From contig JAYWIR010000001.1 in NCBI GenBank assembly GCA_036172245.1, forward strand, positions 3,100,001 through 3,164,000: a stretch of 64,000 bases of DNA, read 5' to 3'. The notes below the pieces were generated by a model. That model saw only the letters and a list, made by a program, of their open reading frames with translations, ran no database searches and had not been told where the DNA came from. A program made the position numbers and the translations under genes. This stretch comes from Raillietiella orientalis (Eukaryota). Position 1 is the first letter of the stretch, and each line of letters starts with the position of its first letter. This document shows positions 5,186 to 53,220 of the stretch, piece after piece.

Positions 5186-5447
5186 CATTCGGGCGTGGCA
5201 CCGGTGGTCGTTTAAGCCGGTGGCCTGGAAGGAATCAAGGAGTGGGGAGTTCCCCCTCCGGTCGTACAACGGAGAGAGGACCCCCCTCAAGGGGGGATCC
5301 CTTCGGTTTCAAGATGGAGCAGGAGCCCTCACGGGCACCTCTCCAGTTGTTCAAAGGAATGGACCCCCCCTGCTGCGGGGGGGGGACCCTCCGAGTCGCC
5401 GCCTCTTCACAGAGTGCAAGGAAGCAAGCGAGAGCAATTTTCTCAGG
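5186..5447 (+). mobile_element. SINE copy S1, internal fragment lacking head and tail
   Basis: Aligns with about 9744-10035 of S2 (e.g. ttcggtttcaagatggagcaggagccctcacgggcacctctccagttgtt is shared) with an internal deletion. Confidence 0.85.
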
Positions 5448-8400: not shown

Positions 8401-9591
8401 TTGTATTTGCTTCATGTCGTGTTCGAAATGTGGCATTCCGTTAAGTACTTACTATACTTACAAAATCATGCATTCAAATATGGTATTTCAAAATTAGCTT
8501 CAAAGTATTTGGAAACAGGAATCCATGTTATGTAGGTTTTTATCCCTGCTTCCAGCCGTGAGTTATGTACTTTTTTTAGGTACATGTCGTGTATGCCTTT
8601 GGTTACACGGATTGCAGATGCCGAGTCGAAAGGCATTAAAGCATCGCTTTTTCTTATACAAAGGTCAGGCGGAAAGTACGCTAAGGAAAGCGACACACGG
8701 AATGTGGAATTCGTGTTCCCATCCGAAGAGTGTTTTGACACAAGCAAATAAAGGATTGGCGCTTCATCTGAATTTGTCTTTCCCCAAAATTGGCCGGAGA
8801 AGCGTGGAAGTCCTCCAGCCTGGTTCGAGAAAACGCGCCGAAGATCAATCATCCACCACCATCAGGTGTCCTGGACCCTCGGAAGAGCAATTTCATCTGG
8901 ACATGTAGCAGGCAGGCGCAAGCGAATGTGCTTCTTTGCCTATGCGAAATGACATGTGGCCGGATTTGGCCCCAAAATAAATGCTGGGCGTTTGTTCAGG
9001 TGGAAAATGGAACTGGAAGGAAGGGATTCTTTCGAAAGGAAACGGAAGATTTCCTTATCTCTTTGCACAAATCCCCCAAAGAGGTTCGAGCATACGCGTT
9101 TACATTGAACTTACTGGTGCCACTCTCCGGCCGCGCCATCAGCACGATTTTCGACGAATCGAGCACCTGGAAACGCCTTTTTCTTCCTTTCCATTCCATG
9201 AAAAGTGCAACAACGATACGAATTACGAAGATGGTTTTCCATAATCTTCCCTCCTGTGCATGAAAGTCGGTTTGATGACCCACGGGCAACTTTTTCCTAG
9301 ACTTTTTCCTTTGCGGATCCTGGCTATTCTTCTTCTAACTTCATTCCAGCTGCAGCTTCCATTGGATGATCTGCATCATCCGGTGCGGGTGTCCCAGTCC
9401 GTCACTTTTACTTTGACGTAACGAAAAGGCTGAGAAGCGACGGTCTCTTGCTAAGAAAGGACTTGCGAACATCTTGCACTCTGCACCCGTTTCGTGCGGA
9501 GCTGTTGGTTTCCCATCTCAAATTCACGGGATTCTCTCGCATACTAGTTTATCGAACAGCCCATCCGGCTTGTCTCTAAATCTGTAGAAAG

Positions 9592-10688
9592 CCCGCGTCG
9601 GAGGCTTTGTGGTTAAGGCTTCCGCGCGTGGCACCAGAATGAAATGATGCAACCCACAGCCTCACACCATGCGTCGCGGGTTCGAATACTTCGGCAGAAA
9701 CTGACGCCACTGCGTCGTTGGGTTTCACCTGCAATGGCCTCATCATTCGGGCATGGCACGGGCGGTGGATTAAGCCGGAGGCCCCCGATGAAGGCCGGAA
9801 CAATGGGAGTCGACCTTCGGGTTCTCCCAGGAATCAAGGACTAGGGAGTTCCCCCTCTGGTCGTGCAACGGAGAGCGGACCCCCCTCACCGGGGGACCAC
9901 TTTCGGTTTCAAGATGGAGCAGGAGCCCTCACGGGCACCTCTCCAGTTGTTTAAAGGAGCGGACCCCCCAATTGCGGGGGACCCTCCGAGTCGTCGCCTC
10001 TTCAAAGAGTGCAAGGAAGCAAGCGAGAGCGATTCCCTGCGGGAAGCTGCAGCGCCCCTTCTGAGTTTCGGGAGCGTCCCTTCGGGGTTCTCTTCAGAGG
10101 AGTGAACAGGAACGGTTCCCTTGCGGGTTCCCTCCGGAGAAGAAATTCCTACTAGCGGATCCTTTCCGAGTTACCTTCGAAGAAGATGAAGTGGAGAGGA
10201 GCACCCCCCTCTTCCGGGGTGGTCCCTCCAGAGAGAATGAGGAAGGAGATTCCCTTCGCGGTTCCCCTTCGGAGACAACCAGGGTGGGAGGTGCGATCCT
10301 CCCCCCCGTCCGGAGGTGATCCCTCCCCAAGCGTGAGAGGAACGGACTCCGAGTCCTTCCTGGATTCACAGGGCGGATCTCCATCCCGGGGTTCCCCCTG
10401 TCCTGAAGAATTACACACCCCCTTGCGGGTTGTCGCAGGGGAGTGGCGTGGAAACTAAACAGTGTGTTTAAAAAGAGCCACGTGCGCCGCGAGGCACGCG
10501 ACCGGCTCTGAGGTACTTAGCGAACCAAAAAAAAAAAAAAGCCCACAAAAAAAAAAATAATCTGGAAGGAAAAAACAGCGAAGACAGAAGAAAAAAGAAG
10601 GACCCAGGATTTCCAAAGAAGGATTTCCATCATCCTAGGCCAATAGTAACGATCTCTTCGTGGGGTCGTTACTGGCCTTTTAAATAAA
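9592..10688 (+). mobile_element. Full-length tRNA-headed SINE-like element with hairpin array, copy S2
   Basis: A-box-like TGGTTAAGG near 9610 and B-box-like GGGTTCGAAT at 9678. Followed by a tandem stem-loop body, an internal A-tract (10527-10557) and a tail ending AAATAAA. Perfect 14-bp TSD AAATCTGTAGAAAG at 9578-9591 and 10689-10702. Seven other homologous copies in the window. Confidence 0.92.
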
Positions 10689-12924
10689 AAATCTGTAGAA
10701 AGTAAATAGAAGCTAGGAAGGAAAATACTGTATAACATCAAAGGACTAAGCCAGAAAAAGCGAGTACTGAAACATACACAAAGTTATTTTTAGAAAGTTG
10801 ATCTTGAGCATGTTGCCAGTTTGAACTGCAAGACACAGAATTTAGTTGCAGAGACCTGACGAAATGCTTTGGGGCAGGTTCTTCGGGCCCTGACGAACAA
10901 GGGCAACAGAACCAGCGAATGCACGTGAAGGTCATCTGAAGATCCCCAGACTCTCTGCGTGGAATTTTCTTCCATCGATGCCTTAGTTACAGTACTGCTC
11001 CTTTCCCATACAAAAAATCAATGCATGAGCCATTCGATGGGACCTTTATTCATGCCTCTGGATACAGTGGCGGATCTTCAGGGAAGGCGTAGCACGTGCA
11101 CTCCTCAACGGAAAAGATGGTAAGCCAAGCCACTAGGCTCCGCTTCACTGACACTTTGATAAGATCGATCGATCCTCAATAGGTAGTGATACCTGTGATC
11201 TGAAGAGAGACAGCGAAAGCAAACAGACAGACAGTCCATCTCGAAACCAAGCAAAAGCATTCGAACGAGATCGCATTCCATTTGCAAAGCTAAAGGTGCC
11301 TTCCAGGGATTAAAATAGCTTAAAGGGTTAAGCAGCATGGCTTGCACTTCGGTTTCTGAACTCGAGTGCACCAAGAGGTGCTCTCAGGAATCCCTTTTGA
11401 GGTCCTTACATCCCTCTTGGATGAAATGAAAATGTCTCTCCATTGCACATCAGCTCCTATGCTTTATAACCGTCTTTGACGCTTCCGGAACAAACCCTTG
11501 ATGAAAGTAAAGAATGTTAATGACTTCGTGCATTTTCACCGGTTCGAATTCGGGTGACTTTGCTGAAAACAGCAGGGAACTCCGATGCTCGAGTCATCAG
11601 ACACAACTTTTTCTGTCATATTTGCTTCGAGCCCGTGTTTACCTGAGAGGAATGCTCTCCTGGATGAAATTTCCATCAGATACGTGGGGATTTTGAATCA
11701 AGCAGCTCTCGCAGTTTCCTTGGCCACGTAGGCACTGGCGTCGTCTGCTGAAGTCTACTTTTTCCGAGTGCCTCGAGTCTCTTGAATAGGCGAACACCGG
11801 AACACTCTTTCTAAAGGGGAAACCTGGCTAAATTATTGAAAAATGATGGATGCAAGGAAGAAGGAAGAAAAGAGAGAGACACCAAGCAGCACTCGTTCGG
11901 GAGTGGGCGTTGCCCACTCCTGGAAACCCCTTGGAAAGCTTCTGAATTCTACTTCCTGAAAGCAATCACGGGAATGCTGTTGAACTGAGCTCTCATTCAC
12001 TCCGGTAATGTCACCTAATGACCGTCGGTCAAATTTGAAATGTGGGTTCCTTGCTAGAACGAGGGCTTTTAATCTCTGGAAGCAAACAACCCATACGGAA
12101 ACACATGCATTTGCGGATGCGTGCGGATGGCTTTCCATCTCATGAAGATGAAGACATCCAGCCATTTGCTGGAACATCACGGCTTCCTGAAGACTGGAGT
12201 GATTTCGGAGCCGAACGAAAGCGGAAAGCTTCGAGAATTTTCTCATAATGACGACATCAGCATGCCAAGCATGCTGCTTGACAGCAGTGCCAAGAAACCA
12301 TCGTCTGGAACAGCGTTTCCCCATGGCGGGACACTTGGCAAATCCTGGAATTTCAACGGAATACCTTGGTTATTTGGTAGGGTGGGGCCAGATACGAATG
12401 ACGAATGAAGTCAAGCAAGTAAATAGGAGAGCCAAGAAAACAAAGCAAAAACATGTATTCTCGAATTTTAATTATGTGAAATGTTCGTGATTTTTTCCGG
12501 AACGCTTATCGACTTTCCGCGGAACACAGTCTGAGAAACGCTGACCTAGAAGGGTGCCCCCTACTATACAACTCGGCTGCAAGGTCACCTAGCATCGTCA
12601 GACATGGAAGAAATTACTCTTGCAGCAATTCACGCGATTTTCGTTTCCCGTTGGAGATGATTTTTCCAGCTGATCTTTCCCGGTGACAGGCGGCAAATGC
12701 TTCTCAGTGAATTGGAAAAACAATTTTAGCAATGTTTTGTAAAGATATAAATCTTTGCGCTGCATCGGTGTCAATCACTTACGAAATGAAAAAAAGAAAA
12801 GGAAAGAAATTAACTGCAGCTTCAGAAATCTCCTGCACCCGAAGCAGGAGATCATCCTGCAATGAGTACGCTGACTACATACTTCTTGTACCAAAGTGCA
12901 CACCAGATTTAGATATGGGGAGAG

Positions 12925-16447: not shown

Positions 16448-17159
16448 TTGGGGAGGGATCCCCCCTGGACGGGGGGGATCGCACCTCCCACCCTGGTTGT
16501 CTCCGAAGGGGAACCGCGAAGGGAATCTCCTTCCTCATTCTCTCCGGATGGACCACCCCGGAAGGGGGGTGGTCCTCTCCACTTCAACTTCTCCTAAGGG
16601 AACCCGGAAAGGATCCGCTTGTAGGAATTTCTTCTCCGGAGGGAACCCGCAAGGGAACCGTTCCTGTTCACTCTTCTGAAGAGAACCCCGAAGGGACGCT
16701 TCCGAAACTCAGAAGGGGCGCTGCAGCTTCCTGCAGGGAATCGCTCTCGCTTGCTTCCTTGTGCACACTCTTTGAAGAGGCGACGAAGGATGGACCCCCC
16801 AACAGGGGGGGTCCGCTCCTTTGAACAACTGGAGAGGTGCCCGCGCGGGCTCCTGCTCCATCTTGAAACCGGAGGCGCTTCCCCGGTGACAGGGGTCTGC
16901 TCTCCGTTGCACGACCAGAGGGGGAACTCCCTAGTCCTTGATTCCTGGGAGGACCCGAAGATCGACTCCCATTGTTCCGGCCTTCATCGGGGGCCTCCGG
17001 CTTAATCCACTGCCGGTGCCACGCCCGAATGTCTCGGCCAACCGGCACCATTGCAGGTGAAACCCAACGACGCAGTGGCGTCAGTTTCTGCCGAAGTATT
17101 CGAACCCGCGACGCATGGTGCCATGCGCGGAAGTCTTAACCACAAAGCCTCCTCCGCGG
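16448..17159 (-). mobile_element. SINE copy S3, 3'-truncated, close to S2
   Basis: Reverse complement of S2 from the head (ccgcggaggaggctttgtggttaag...gggttcgaatacttcggc) to about 10330. Tail absent. Confidence 0.92.
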
Positions 17160-21294: not shown

Positions 21295-21982
21295 GCCCGC
21301 GTAGGAGGCCATGTGGTTACTGTGGTCTCCGCGTGTGGCACTCGGCATTGCGAGTTCGAATAGTCGGCAAGAATCGGAGCAAAGAGTTTGTGCGCGTCGT
21401 GGGTTCGAGTCGGAGATAACGCTGTTCGACCTATACTTCCCGGGAAGGCGCCCAGTAGTGGTGCAAACTGTATGCCCCCGACGAGGTCCCAAGCAATGGA
21501 AGTCGACCTCCGAATCCCTTCCAGGAATTAAGGAGTGGAAGTTACCTTCCGGCCGTGCACAGGAGCGGACTCCCCTTTGGGGGGGACCCTCCGTAGAATA
21601 GGTGTGTCGCCACATCTCTAGAGTTCCAGAGAAGCGTGCCGCTTTCTTCGGGGAGAGCTCCCTTCTGAATTTCGGAAGCGTCCCTTCGGGGTTCCCTTCG
21701 GAGAAGAAAACATGGAGCGGACCCCTTCGGGGGTCCCTCCCTAGAGAGTAAAGAAAGGGAGGATTCTCTTCCGGGTTCCCGTCGGAGGCAACCAGGGTTG
21801 GGAGGTTCCCTTCGGGGATGCCTCCCCAGGCTTGAGAGGCGGTCCCTCCCCGGTATCTTGAAGAATTAACACACGTACCCTCGGGTGGGGTGGGGAACAG
21901 TCTCAAAGAGCTGCGTGGGATGCTGGTTCTTGAAGTACTCAGCGAACCCCCACAAAAAAGCTAAAAGCGAAGATTTCCATCG
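21295..21982 (+). mobile_element. SINE copy S4, divergent, with fewer hairpin units
   Basis: Head gcccgcgtaggaggccatgtggtt...gagttcgaat, shared ccaggaat(t/c)aagga, canonical hairpin at 21714-21740, then agtactcagcgaacc + A-tract + gaagatttccatc. Confidence 0.88.
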
Positions 21983-29495: not shown

Positions 29496-29496
29496 G

Positions 29497-31109
29497 GTGG
29501 CTCACGATGCTCTTCAGACACTGACCACGCCACCCATGGGGGCGTGAGGCTCTTCCAGCTATGGGGTAATCCCGGAGGGAGACCACGCTATGGATCCAGG
29601 AAGGCTTCGGAGGAAGGCATCCATACCTCTTACGCTTGGCAGAAGAGTTCTGAAAGGAACCTCAGCCCTGGTTGTTTCCGGAAGGACCCCCGGAGGTGAC
29701 CTCTCCATTCACTATAAAATTAAATTCAAATACACAAAATAAGACAGTCTTGCTTAATACAATCTTTCATTCAGGTTACCAATTAAATAACTAATTATTA
29801 TGCTACCTTAGTACAGTCAATATACCACAGCTGTTTATTATACACCGGGCAGATTATACCTTATATTACTCATAAGGAAATGTCTTTAAGAAACAGTTTA
29901 AACAAATTTTTGCTGAATTCCTTATAATATTCTCACTTTACAAATTTCTTTTCCTAAGGAAACCCAGAAAGAATCCATCCCCGGAATTTCTTCTCCGAAG
30001 GGAACCCGCAAGGAAACCTCTCCCTGTTTCCTATTCTGAAGAGAACCCCGAAGAGACGCTTCCAAGTTTTCTCTGAAGGGTCGCTCTCCGAAGGGAGCAG
30101 CGCTCTCCTTACACACTGGAATGCTACCCGAGGGGGATATCAACCAGCTCTATGGGACGAGATGGAGAGATCCCTCTTTACAACCGGAGGGGAACCCCAA
30201 AGGGCTCCTTGATTCCTGGAAGGACCCCGGAGAGCCAACTTCTAATCCCGACCAGTCAACGGGAGCATCTGGCTTCGACCAGTGCCTCGATACTGCTGCA
30301 CTGGGGCCTCTCGTGCAACGCTCACCCGCATCTGTGGACACGCGGGGGAGTGGACTCAAACTGTGCAAATTGTGGGGAGCGGGAATCCTTCCTGCACCTC
30401 CTAGTGGACTATGTTGCCCTCCGGCTCCTTTGGGGACGCTTTGCCACGACCCTTTGAATCCCCGGCGGCAACGCCAGAGACGTTGTAAAGCGCCTCTTCC
30501 TGCGCGACGCCCTCACTCCGGCCGCATCCCTAGCAGTACTGTGCGGCCCATGCGGCGGGACCTTGACTGTATGGAGCAGCGACAAAGGAGGAGGCCAGAA
30601 CGAAGGGACGCCAATTATTCTGCTGTCCTCTTCATGAGTACAGAGTCAACATGGACCCATCTGAGAGTCTTGAAACAGGAACAGCCGGCATCCTTACAAG
30701 GATGCAGAGGACGCCCTCCAGAACACAGTGATCTTTCCCGAACCTTTTTTTGAGTGTATATTTTTTGTTTTTCTTTTTGTTTATCTCCCCTTCCCCTGTG
30801 CTGCTGAGATGAACCCTGCTGGCCTGCGTGCCAGATCCTGGCAGGCTCCTTTTCGTATCCATAAGTAACGTGGCAGGATCAAACGTCCTGCCAAAGGCAT
30901 GTAGGTTTAGAAATAAACTCCCTGGCGTGACCAGGTGTCAATAGGGCCGCGCCCAAAGTCTGTAGGCCAACCAGCGTCATCCTGCAGGAGGGGGCTCGAA
31001 ATCCATGACGCATCCATCATTCTCGGCTCGATCCTTCCCCGGGCGGGATTCGAACCCGCAACGCGTGGTACGACGCGCGGAGACCACAGCCACACGGCCG
31101 CCAACGCGG
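29497..31109 (-). mobile_element. SINE copy S5, interrupted by an AT-rich insert (29711-29945) and LINE L2 (30287-30940)
   Basis: Segments 29497-29710, 29946-30286 and 30941-31109 are collinear with S7/S8/S3. Head gcgggttcgaatcccgcccggggaaggatcga on the minus strand. Confidence 0.88.
30287..30940 (+). mobile_element. 5'-truncated LINE 3' end (L2) nested in SINE S5
   Basis: LLHWGLSCNAHPHLWTRGGVDSNCANCGERESFLHLLVDYVALRLLW (zf-RVT-like), T-rich UTR, AATAAA at 30912 followed by a CCTGG/CCAGG hairpin. Confidence 0.88.
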
Positions 31110-39270: not shown

Positions 39271-39978
39271 TCGCCTCGCCGGCCGCTTTCGCTGCGGCCT
39301 CCGCGCGACGTGGTACCGAGCGTCGCAGGTTCGAATCCCACTCGGGGAAGGATCGACGCCGAGAAATGGGGGAGGGGGGACGTCGTGGGTTTCGAGTGCC
39401 TTCCGCAGGATGACGCGAGTTGGCCTGTCGGCTTCGGACAGGGCACTGATGAGAGCCGGAAGCCCCCGTTGACTGGCCGGGATTGTAAGTTGATCCTCCG
39501 GGGTCCTTCCAGGAATCAAGGAGCTCCTGTTGTGAAAAGGGAGCCGTACCATGGAGCTGGTTGATATACTTTTGGGGATTGCCTCTCCAGAGTGTAAGAA
39601 GCGTACTGCTCTCTTCAGGGAGCGTCCTCCAGAGAAATTGGGAAGCGTCCCTTTGTGGGGTTCTCTTCAAAGGAGGAAAAACAACGAGCAGTTTCCTACC
39701 GTGTTCTCTCCGGAGAAGAAATGAGGATTGTCCCCCTCCCGAGACAACCAGGCGGGGTTCCCTTCGGGGTTCTTCTACCAAACGTAAGAGTGACGGGCTC
39801 CTTCCTCCGGAACCTCCCTGGATCCATGGGGTGACCTCTCTCCTGGGCTGCCCCCTAACTGAAAGACTCACACACACCCTCGGGTGGCGTAGACGCCGCT
39901 CAAAAGCTTGGAGACCTCTTCCTGTAGGGAGGCGAATGGGTCTTCAGTACTCCTTAAGAACCCAAAAAGAAGGATTTC
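39271..39978 (+). mobile_element. SINE copy S6 (second subfamily)
   Basis: Head gcaggttcgaatcccactcgggg, shared ccaggaatcaagga and hairpin units. Tail ends after gaaggatttc. Confidence 0.9.
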
Positions 39979-41054: not shown

Positions 41055-41848
41055 TTATGAAAGTCCAGGGACATCTATCGTTGTTGTTGGCCTGGACTAA
41101 TGGCAACCCTCTTGGGTTTTTCCGCCCTCTCCACTTTCCTTCCAGTTGTTTTTTTCTTGGTTCTCAAGGAGTGCTGGAGAAACCGTTCGCCTCCCTATGA
41201 GAGGGGGGAGGGGGGAAGTTTTTTAACGCTGTTCACGCTACTCGAGGGACTCTTCCGGTTAGGGGGGCATCCCGGGGGGAGGCCACCCCATGGATCCAGG
41301 AAGGCTCTGGAAAAAGGAGTCCGTCCCTCTTAAGTTCGGTAGAAGAACCCCGAAGGGAACCCCGCCTGGTTGTCTCGGGAGGGGGACAATCCTCATTTCT
41401 TCTCCGGAGAGAACACGGTAGGAAACTGCTCGTTGTTTTTCCTCCTTTGAAGAGAACCCCACAAAGGGACGCTTCCCAATTTCTCTGGAGGACGCTCCCT
41501 GAAGGGAGCAGTACGCTTCTTACACTCTGGAGAGGCAATCCCCAAAAGTATATCAACCAGCTCCATGGTACGGCTCCCTTTTCACAACAGGAGCTCCTTG
41601 ATTCCTGGAAGGACCCCGGAGGATCAACTTACAATCCCGGCCAGTCAACGGGGGCTTCCGGCTCTCATCAGTGCCCTGTCCGAAGCCGACAGGCCAACTC
41701 GCGTCATCCTGCGGAAGGCACTCGAAACCCACGACGTCCCCCCTCCCCCATTTCTCGGCGTCGATCCTTCCCCGAGTGGGATTCGAACCTGCGACGCTCG
41801 GTATCACTCGCGCAGAGGCCCGCAGTCACGCGGCTGCTAGAGCGGCCC
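41055..41848 (-). mobile_element. SINE copy S7, convergent with S6
   Basis: Reverse complement of S6. Its tail (ctggaaggaaa...ccattagtccaggccaacaacaacgat...ctggactttcataa) is homologous to the S2 tail. Confidence 0.9.
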
Positions 41849-51540: not shown

Positions 51541-53220
51541 GATTGGAAGTTGACCCCCTCGTAGTCCTTCCAAGAATCAAGGAGTCAGTCCCCTTCGGGG
51601 CTCCCTCCGGTTGTGCAGATGATCTCCACTGCGTACCACGGAGCTGGTTGATGCACCCCCGGGGGTTGCCTCTTTAGAGTCAGAAGCATGCTTCTCCCTT
51701 CGGGAGCGCCCTCCAGAGAAATTGGGAAGCGTCCCTTCGAGGTTCTCTTCAGAGGACGAGTAACAAGGAGCAGTTCTCTTGCTGCTCCCACCGGAGAAGA
51801 GATTCAAGATTCAACTCTACTGGTTTCCTCGGAAGAAAAAAAGAGGGGCGGAGGAACCATCTGGAGAGAATAGGGAAGAGGTTTCCTTCGGGATTCTCTT
51901 CCAAGCATAAGGGGGACCAACTCGTTCCTCCGGAGCCTTCCTGGATTCATAGGGTGGTCCCTCCAGGGTCACCTCTTAACTTGAAGAGTCACACGCAGTC
52001 TCGGGGATGGAGTGGGCAGTGTTTAAAGAGCTTCGTGAGCCCCCCCTAAGGAAGCAAAGGGTTCTTCAGTGCTTTGGTAACCAAAAAAAACAAAACCCGA
52101 AAAAACAAACAAACAAAAGCTGAAAGGAAAGCAGCGAAAGCAGAATAACCCAAAAGGAATTCTATCATCCAAGGTCCCCTCTCCTTGCCCCAGAGCTACC
52201 CTCCCTAAGGGACGCAAGGGACAGCGTAATCCCAGCAAGGTGAGAAGTGACTTGCCGCATAGCAGCAAAGAAGAAACTTCTGGGGTCGTGGACAACTCGG
52301 GAAGTGACCGACGCTGCGACTCCGAGTGTCCCACCCCAAGGACCTGCACGCTGGGGTGATCTGCTCGACATCCCTCCGGAGAAGGTGAAGTAGTCCCCAT
52401 CGTGCTGCAGCAGCGGAGTGCTCCCCCTCAAATGGCAGGAGTTGGCTGCTGCATGGAGGAAATCCCGTGCAAAGCGCGCCTTCTCCCCCAACTGGACACG
52501 GGAGGAGCGTGGATGCTAAGTGCGACAGGTGCGGGAAGAAGGAGACCCTTCAGCACCTGCTGTTGGACTGTGCTGTCCTCCGATCCCTTTGGGATCGCCT
52601 TGCGACGATCCTAGGAACCCCGGAGGGCGGCCCCAGGGACATTTTCAAACGCCTCTTCGCGCGTCCCGCCTCTGCTGCCAGCCGCATCCCTAGCACTTTT
52701 CCCTGCTGTGTTCTCGGGAATCACGGTGGCCTGGAACGTCAGAAGAGACCGAAATGGCAGGGACGTCATCCACTGGGTGCGGATCTTCCGGAAAACCGGC
52801 TCGATATGTCCCCTCCTGGGTGCGACACGGGTGGAACTGGCCAGCATCCTGAATAGGATGCCGAGGACGCCTGGCAGTGTACTGTGATCCCTTCCTCTCC
52901 CCCTCCCCCTCCTCATGCATAATTTCCCTTCCTCTGTTTGTTTGTTTTTTTGCTTCCCCTTCCCCCACGCTGACGGAGCGGACCTCGCCGGTCTGTGTGT
53001 TGGTCTTTGGCTGGTGCATTGCACGTGGTAGAACCAAGGGCTCCAACACACCAATGTATTTTTCTTACTTATGTAATTAAATCTCCAGCATAACCAGGTG
53101 ATGATCATCCAAGACCAGTAGCAGCCAACCATGTGTGAGTGAAATCATCAACGATCGGCAGCAATAGGGAACGCTAGAAAGAGAATGGTGGTGGGGGGGT
53201 CAGATCAATGGCTATTAATA
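51541..53220 (+). mobile_element. SINE copy S8, 5'-truncated, tail interrupted by LINE L9
   Basis: Body homologous to S6 from gattggaagttgacc. A-tract at 52083-52118. Tail ctgaaaggaaagcagcgaa...tctatcatccaag|accagtag matches the S2 tail. Right boundary uncertain. Confidence 0.8.
52174..53103 (+). mobile_element. 5'-truncated LINE (L9) nested in the SINE S8 tail
   Basis: GSWTTREVTDA...RWGDLL..., KCDRCGKKETLQHLLLDCAVLRSLWDRLA. ATTAAA + ccaggtg terminus. Perfect TSD ATCATCCAAG at 52164-52173 and 53104-53113. Confidence 0.92.

Follow-up and report, generated by a model that had tools for sequence, protein, structure and literature searches.

The window, that is, the whole 64,000-nt stretch of DNA analysed here, sits in a 210-Mb eukaryotic assembly and carries eight copies of one SINE family. 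The actin genes of the assembly are rich in introns and of animal type, and the C-terminus of one would read as arthropod-like. The focal copy spans 9591-10688 on the + strand, to which all the coordinates in this paragraph refer. It is a 1.1-kb, tRNA-headed element with a T4 terminator, bounded by a 13-nt target-site duplication (TSD): the 13-mers at 9578-9590 and 10689-10701 are identical. The tRNA-related head (9591-9700) includes an A-box-like motif at 9608-9618 and a B-box-like motif at 9679-9689, both placed by the A- and B-box consensus. It is followed by a segment of predicted hairpins common to all lineages (9701-9804), an array of degenerate bulged-hairpin units with purine-rich linkers (9805-10400), and two more hairpins (10412-10510). 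Next come an internal A-rich tract (10527-10620), just before or within which many copies stop; a conserved tail site (10621-10635), which in other copies has taken insertions of Tx1/L1-like LINE fragments and of opposite-strand SINE copies; and a terminal segment (10639-10688) with a hairpin of -19.4 kcal/mol in the sense and -11.6 kcal/mol in the antisense orientation. Within this segment lies the element's only T4 run (10678-10681), at its 3' end and followed by a short A tail; the five lineage consensuses contain none. This placement would be compatible with transcription of the SINE by RNA polymerase III.

The label SINE, already given in the initial annotation, is borne out by the TSD, the tRNA-related head, the copy number, and the shared 5' end. 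A 15-mer from the body, with one mismatch allowed, has 2,416 matches in the genome versus 15 for the reversed control; as a body-motif count, this sets a lower bound of at least 2,400 copies. By this count and its presence at eight places in the window, the family is dispersed, high-copy, and non-coding. It joins an A-rich tail to TSDs, as in the focal copy, and exact duplications of 8-14 nt flank 24 of 48 loci that are 5'-intact and tail-bearing. The 5' end is sharp and common to 30 copies. Thirty young copies chosen by their body comprise 11 of full length, 17 that stop at or near the A tract (consensus 919-961), and 2 that stop in the tail site. Pfam, run on 150 of the 217 window reading frames of at least 100 aa, gave a weak zf-RVT match as its sole result, and neither Rfam nor ARAGORN at default settings matched anything within the window.

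The head is worn, though tRNA-related. Its oldest-lineage consensus scores 53.5 against a genomic tRNA (59 compared; shuffle maximum 40.5) and is called by ARAGORN at a relaxed threshold only; the young-lineage head is borderline, at 47.5 versus 46.5 for shuffles. The first 42 nt (9591-9632) refold into a single long hairpin in four lineage consensuses, which differ from one another there by several G-U/G-C swaps; this pattern is not significant branch-wise. The focal copy alone has 33 nt inserted in the interval from the A box to the B box (9637-9669), and this insert ends by repeating the preceding 5 nt. The nearest relative of the focal copy, locus L002, has 31 diagnostic changes in common with it and flanks of its own; it is preceded by a T run resembling an inverted copy of the SINE 3' end.

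Copies and lineages

We resolved six SINE lineages. They include S1, with 72 copies that passed thresholds of 80% identity and 85% cover and diverge from their consensus by about 5.5%, S2, with 22 copies and a divergence of about 6.5%, a star-like old lineage of 54 copies at about 16%, and two small lineages of 5 and 3 copies; an 8-copy subgroup within S1 is counted as a lineage of its own. CpG hypermutation is absent from the S1 and S2 copy sets, where C>T changes run at ~0.05 within and outside CpG, and CpG decay, considered as a confounder, was ruled out on that ground.

In the window, the young lineage is further represented by a fragment at 5230-5439 (+, 92% to consensus) and by a 3'-truncated copy at 16448-17159 (-, 93%), and S2 by a copy at 21295-21975 (+). 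Old-lineage copies lie at 29496-31109 (-), where a LINE fragment and an AT-rich repeat have split the copy; at 39272-39975 (+, 77%); at 41150-41845 (-), the inverted partner of the preceding copy; and at 51541-52173 (+), with a tail interrupted by a LINE fragment. The two members of the inverted pair are 91% identical to each other and 76-77% to the consensus, as local duplication or conversion would leave them. The AT-rich repeat within the split copy is 240 nt long (29708-29946), and its copies elsewhere are 97-99% identical. S2 copies (window 21960-21975; L043-L067) stop at the tail site and have no terminal hairpin (11 ends); a TSD was absent at all nine S2 loci examined.

The hairpin array

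The body had been described as about 10 bulged stem-loops recurring every 35-50 nt. The recurrent array holds, with a different count and spacing: 14 units, with boundaries drawn by eye, fill 9805-10400, and their starts (9805, 9838, 9870, 9915, 9956, 10015, 10068, 10109, 10152, 10193, 10240, 10287, 10338, and 10369) lie 31-59 nt apart. The units singled out at 9916-9944 and, as the cleanest example, at 21714-21740 in the S2 copy read exactly as claimed, and the minus-strand copy near 16831-16859 indeed differs from the former in its loop only (GCGC). The annotated variation in unit number is also real. It takes the form of in-register gains and losses between copies and lineages: a 50-nt duplication is present in two of the three copies of one small lineage, and one-unit deletions occur elsewhere, including the copy at 21295. 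The SINE body is a row of ~40-nt homologous units, gained and lost in register by the active lineages.

The description of the body as repeated bulged hairpins is supported. Pairs of shared 6-mers inside the array number 187 versus 117±16, exceeding all 300 shuffles; internal similarity is likewise above all shuffles in three consensuses, and highest in the oldest (217 versus 67±13). Single units fold alone at -4.8 to -25.9 kcal/mol. The array has a local-fold z of -3.4 on the + strand and -2.6 on the - strand and a global-fold z of -2.36 and -1.04, respectively, and the young consensus folds better than its shuffles (z -4.8). Other methods gave weak results. A hairpin finder restricted to Watson-Crick pairs found 9 hairpins versus 6.2±1.3 in shuffles, with one of 40 shuffles also reaching 9; an HMM built from 7 alternate units scored the held-out units at 1.9-7.2 bits, no better than the shuffle best (mean 6.1). 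Tandem Repeats Finder returned 0 rows; the array lacks the regular head-to-tail repeats of a minisatellite and has only a diffuse periodicity. Taken together, the excess of 6-mers and of folding, set against these weak results, means that the array is real and that its units, though worn, are homologous.

In CsrB/RsmZ sponges and MS2/PP7 arrays, a fixed loop or bulge motif recurs in many short hairpins. The initial annotation likened the body to such a multivalent aptamer array, in which a repeated specific site would recruit LINE proteins or sponge a host protein, and stated that many loops are C(TTCG)G, the form of the extra-stable UUCG tetraloop. "Many" overstates the case: the intact CCTTCGGG occurs in the focal copy at 9814 and 10079 only, that is, in 2 of 14 units. 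The loops include TTCG, AGTT, CTCACC, TCAC, AATTGC, TGC, TTGC, and others, none common to the units. Unlike the sponges and phage-type arrays, the present array thus has loops that differ, with no conserved repeated loop or bulge; GGA lies in stems and linkers, and the array belongs to a dispersed animal retroposon. The anticipated strand bias of TTCG is present and confined to the sense strand: the window has 13 matches to the motif versus 3.4 expected, 11 of the 13 lie inside SINE copies, and all 11 of these are in the sense orientation, while the lineage consensuses have 2-6 CTTCGG each and 0 CCGAAG. However, these sites are not independent, because they are inherited among copies, and the bias follows from common descent.

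A repeated specific site could still draw on the sense-only CTTCGG, on the repeated outer stem, whose 5' bulge is C in 9 of 14 young-consensus units (eye count), and on a precedent for shape-based binding, that of plant SB1 SINE RNA by HYL1 (PMC2408557). Yet some CTTCGG sites lie outside the loops, at the ends of units; in unit 7, 17 of 72 copies have an altered UUCG loop; the bulge bases vary among lineage-shared variants; covariation across units is negative; and copies decay neutrally. Since the loops are the most variable sites of the array, loop-specific recognition is contradicted, and we consider a multivalent aptamer or sponge very improbable.

Relation to described SINEs

SINEBase comprises 175 families of 75-662 nt (PMC3531059), compared with about 930 nt without the tail for the present SINE. 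The two have in common a tRNA-related head, a non-coding body, an A-rich tail, TSDs, high copy number, and subfamilies that differ by internal duplications and deletions; the present body differs in consisting of 11-14 homologous hairpin units and is not a quasi-dimer. The Vhc (V highly conserved) SINEs of molluscs and arthropods resemble it in having a ~40-nt G/C/T-run hairpin with an internal loop in the body, but as described in PMC4758252, Vhc is single-copy in 230-ish-nt SINEs, whereas the present units number 11-14 per body. Some short words are common to Vhc and the present unit by eye, which is a lead only. Membership in V/Vhc is defined there by a 37-39-bp subdomain more than 78% identical to the consensus; an ungapped search for the Vhc core motif with 3 mismatches gave 0 matches in the window and a match in 1 of 347 loci, and by this ungapped search the present SINE falls outside that group. 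Plant SB1 SINE RNA is similar in being a tRNA-SINE RNA refolded into bulged stem-loops; PMC2408557 reports three stem-loops with tested HYL1 binding, compared with many short predicted stems here. A search of openly accessible literature, by title and abstract start, found no published SINE with such an array. On present evidence, the hairpin-array SINE belongs to an ordinary class, in which it stands out by its length and its odd construction.

A possible constraint on RNA folding

The suggestion of RNA-level selection meets with weak and mixed evidence: compensatory haplotypes and milder sense-strand variants favor it, and the filtering, branch-wise, cross-unit, and strand tests do not. In its broadest form, such selection would be purifying selection on source copies for generic local folding of a long Pol III transcript, for stability, compaction, or avoidance of long duplexes. 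Stems would be kept while loops drift, and the folding would serve retroposition of the SINE itself. There are precedents, in that stem-loops matter for Alu jumping (PMC12062377) and the Vhc hairpin is conserved in invertebrate SINEs (PMC4758252). Structure also matters for LINE-derived tails (PMC3747384).

Variation within S1 provides part of the evidence for this reading. Shared variants, defined as those carried by at least 8 of the 72 copies (n=38, with sites near >12% gaps dropped), destabilize the sense strand less than rare variants (n=403), by 0.42 versus 1.84 kcal/mol (p=0.004); the antisense strand gives p=0.23. Base-matched permutation yields p 0.002 in two settings but 0.12-0.37 in the four settings from which the 8-copy subgroup was removed; these values are conservative, because single-variant scoring penalizes compensated pairs. 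Two compensatory haplotypes are each carried by 5 or more of the 72 copies, versus 0.30 such haplotypes expected (P=0.023). They occur in 7 and 8 copies; one of the two pairs, C-G to U-A in 8 of 72 copies, lies in unit 4 (9916-9944), and one of the haplotypes is a 16-nt tract with no further linked change. One stem pair is G-C, G-U, and A-U in different lineages, and many G-U swaps are present in the head region. Lineage-shared variants affect 13 of 62 loop sites (21%) and 27 of 286 stem sites (9.4%), so that loops are more variable than stems (Fisher p=0.015), but the stem sites are no poorer in such variants than the linkers (5.7%).

Comparisons between lineages are divided in the same way. 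Pairwise, the ratio of broken to expected pairs is 0.64 on the sense and 0.79 on the antisense strand, and among 14 directed comparisons per strand, stem retention has p<0.05 in 6 on the + strand and in 2 on the - strand, although these comparisons reuse the same changes. When 163 terminal-branch changes are each counted once, 48 pairs are broken versus 52.8 expected (p=0.19), in a test that takes in a wider set of pairs and could be underpowered. The antisense counterpart (48 versus 54.6, p=0.11), the head, and double compensations (3 versus 1.4, p=0.16) are likewise not significant on this test. Between consensuses, double compensations number 9 versus 7.3 expected. Shared C>T changes exceed G>A at unpaired sites too (8 versus 1, eye count), and this excess mimics G-U tolerance; the strand-symmetric comparison of G-T with A-C in stems, 13 versus 9 over five consensuses, has no bias.

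Covariation across units, proposed at the outset as a check, is negative. RNAalifold on 19 units gave 0 consensus pairs. Across these units, the proposed structure has 68.3% of cells paired versus 69.9% in shuffles, and its covariation was equalled by 361 of 500 shuffles; the alignment was made on sequence only, and some of its rows were out of register. Anchoring the 5' and 3' arms independently gave permutation p 0.13-0.42, with a 3' anchor that also matched loops. Exact body motifs had 0 matches in metagenome and viral contigs, which accordingly yielded no outside homologues for covariation. Differences between sense and antisense folding range from z -1.96 to +1.06 over 5 consensuses, with no strand preference, and in two lineages the consensus folds no better than the decayed copies (oldest, z -1.45 versus -1.39; S2, -1.14 versus -1.34).

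Inserted copies decay without regard to stems: their broken-pair ratio is 0.90-1.00 in old and S2 bodies, with 0.78-0.85 in S1. The evidence for a constraint on RNA folding is therefore weak and mixed; a weak constraint is possible, and a strong one is not seen. Purifying selection for generic folding of source copies is, in our judgment, a tenable minority reading.

Origin of the array

The explanation we prefer, with a probability of roughly 0.55, is that the array arose during retroposition, mainly because a quasi-palindromic unit was duplicated internally, and that its folding is constrained weakly if at all. The SINE would be a non-autonomous, tRNA-headed retroposon, presumably transcribed by RNA polymerase III from its internal boxes to the terminal T4. 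A LINE reverse transcriptase would copy this RNA into other places in the genome, in many cases after early priming at the internal A tract. The unit itself was probably built from two copies of a G-run/C-run 12-mer and may have been duplicated by template switching or slippage between the repeated GGAG, CTCC, and GGGTTC motifs. Such duplication alone could yield bulged hairpins and CTTCGG loops, with no need for selection. Any folding constraint would be weak, limited to source copies, and of service to the element, and copies once inserted would decay neutrally.

The make-up of the unit is consistent with this account. It reads as GGAG-C, two copies of the G-run/C-run 12-mer, and an A-rich linker, and the way a unit with such a pair is built makes it fold as a bulged hairpin whichever strand is read. 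The motif for the unit end also matches the loop. In the oldest consensus, lags of 10-14 nt are in excess (12 versus 1.5±2.0), within a shuffle maximum of 14. Among 21 regex-matched units, which are not independent, 7 are of direct-repeat type, 3 inverted, 1 both, and 10 neither. TT/TT mismatches are often kept in inner stems, as a direct repeat would give, although tandem U-U loops could also be selected. Template switching at hairpins has been proposed for SINE modules (PMC5804259); by analogy, it might extend to the present array.

Some of the same data could be produced at the DNA level. Hairpins in cDNA or genomic DNA might template arm-to-arm correction and slippage, which would maintain palindromes and yield compensatory-looking changes and matched run lengths with no selection on RNA. 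The two strands do fold about equally, the 16-nt-tract haplotype has no other linked change, and the lengths of the C-run and G-run in unit 5 correlate (rho 0.54, n=31 of 72, p=0.002), a correlation absent in 3 other units. Against correction between arms, bulges and TT/TT mismatches persist across lineages, and double changes in inserted copies are not in excess (13 versus 19.4 expected in old, 7 versus 3.8 in S2, and 4 versus 5.7 in S1 copies). We regard palindrome maintenance as quite improbable.

A more elaborate reading, which we hold to be unlikely, takes the body for a modular RNA scaffold. Twelve or more short bulged stems would be selected on source copies as a multivalent platform, read by shape, for LINE proteins or a host dsRNA-binding protein; the array might have been amplified from a Vhc-like hairpin, and unit number would tune the rate of retroposition. 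What SINE bodies do is an open question (PMC5804259). Should the hairpins prove to be selected binding sites, they would give a SINE a novel means of capturing proteins. The spread of unit numbers among the lineages (11-14) provides a natural series for testing the effect of body structure on retroposition.

The tail site and LINE insertions

The top 30 reverse-transcriptase loci belong to one L1/Tx1-like family, whose 3' end is unlike that of the SINE and which has no tail in common with it. A 3' end shared between the SINE and a partner LINE was thus not found among these 30 loci or among 15 LINE ends, 11 of which run into sequence other than the SINE tail. At 3 of 90 tail-motif loci, a LINE 3' end lies directly before the SINE tail, and a LINE-derived SINE tail at first looked supported; we rejected it, since these LINE ends are insertions into the tail, with SINE sequence upstream and a TSD. 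At loci L272 and L274, the SINE body precedes the LINE and the tail sequence follows it; at L276, the body and the first part of the tail precede the LINE; at L175, there is no SINE upstream of the LINE. In the window, the LINE fragment at ~52185-53103 lies between 10-nt duplications of tail sequence at 52164 and 53104. From the SINE sequence upstream of the LINE and the flanking duplication, it follows that the SINE tail site is an insertion target of a Tx1-like LINE.

The arrangement resembles that of Tx1-Mar with SINEU (PMC4494074), in that Tx1/L1-like fragments lie at one SINE tail site and SINE copies lie there too; it differs from the Tx1-clade cases described there in that the target is the SINE tail and mobilization of the SINE is putative. 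An intact relative has endonuclease, reverse-transcriptase, and zinc-binding domains. By analogy with SINEU/Tx1-Mar, the Tx1/L1-like group is a candidate mobilizer of the SINE.

Several further observations concern these insertions. The Tx1/L1-like fragments at the SINE tail site (window 51541-53113; L272, L274, and L276) share their orientation. Of 25 S2 loci, 3 (L053, L055, and L056) hold a tail-to-tail pair of SINE copies that meet at the tail site. A second LINE subgroup is found in antisense orientation at one site of the post-head segment (window 30289-30943; L176 and L273) and accounts for 3 of the 15 LINE ends. Finally, loci L118-L147 form a young L1/Tx1-like family with open frames of up to about 1,200 aa; many of its members lie on small contigs or near contig ends, with a spacing of about 5.7 kb in some contigs.
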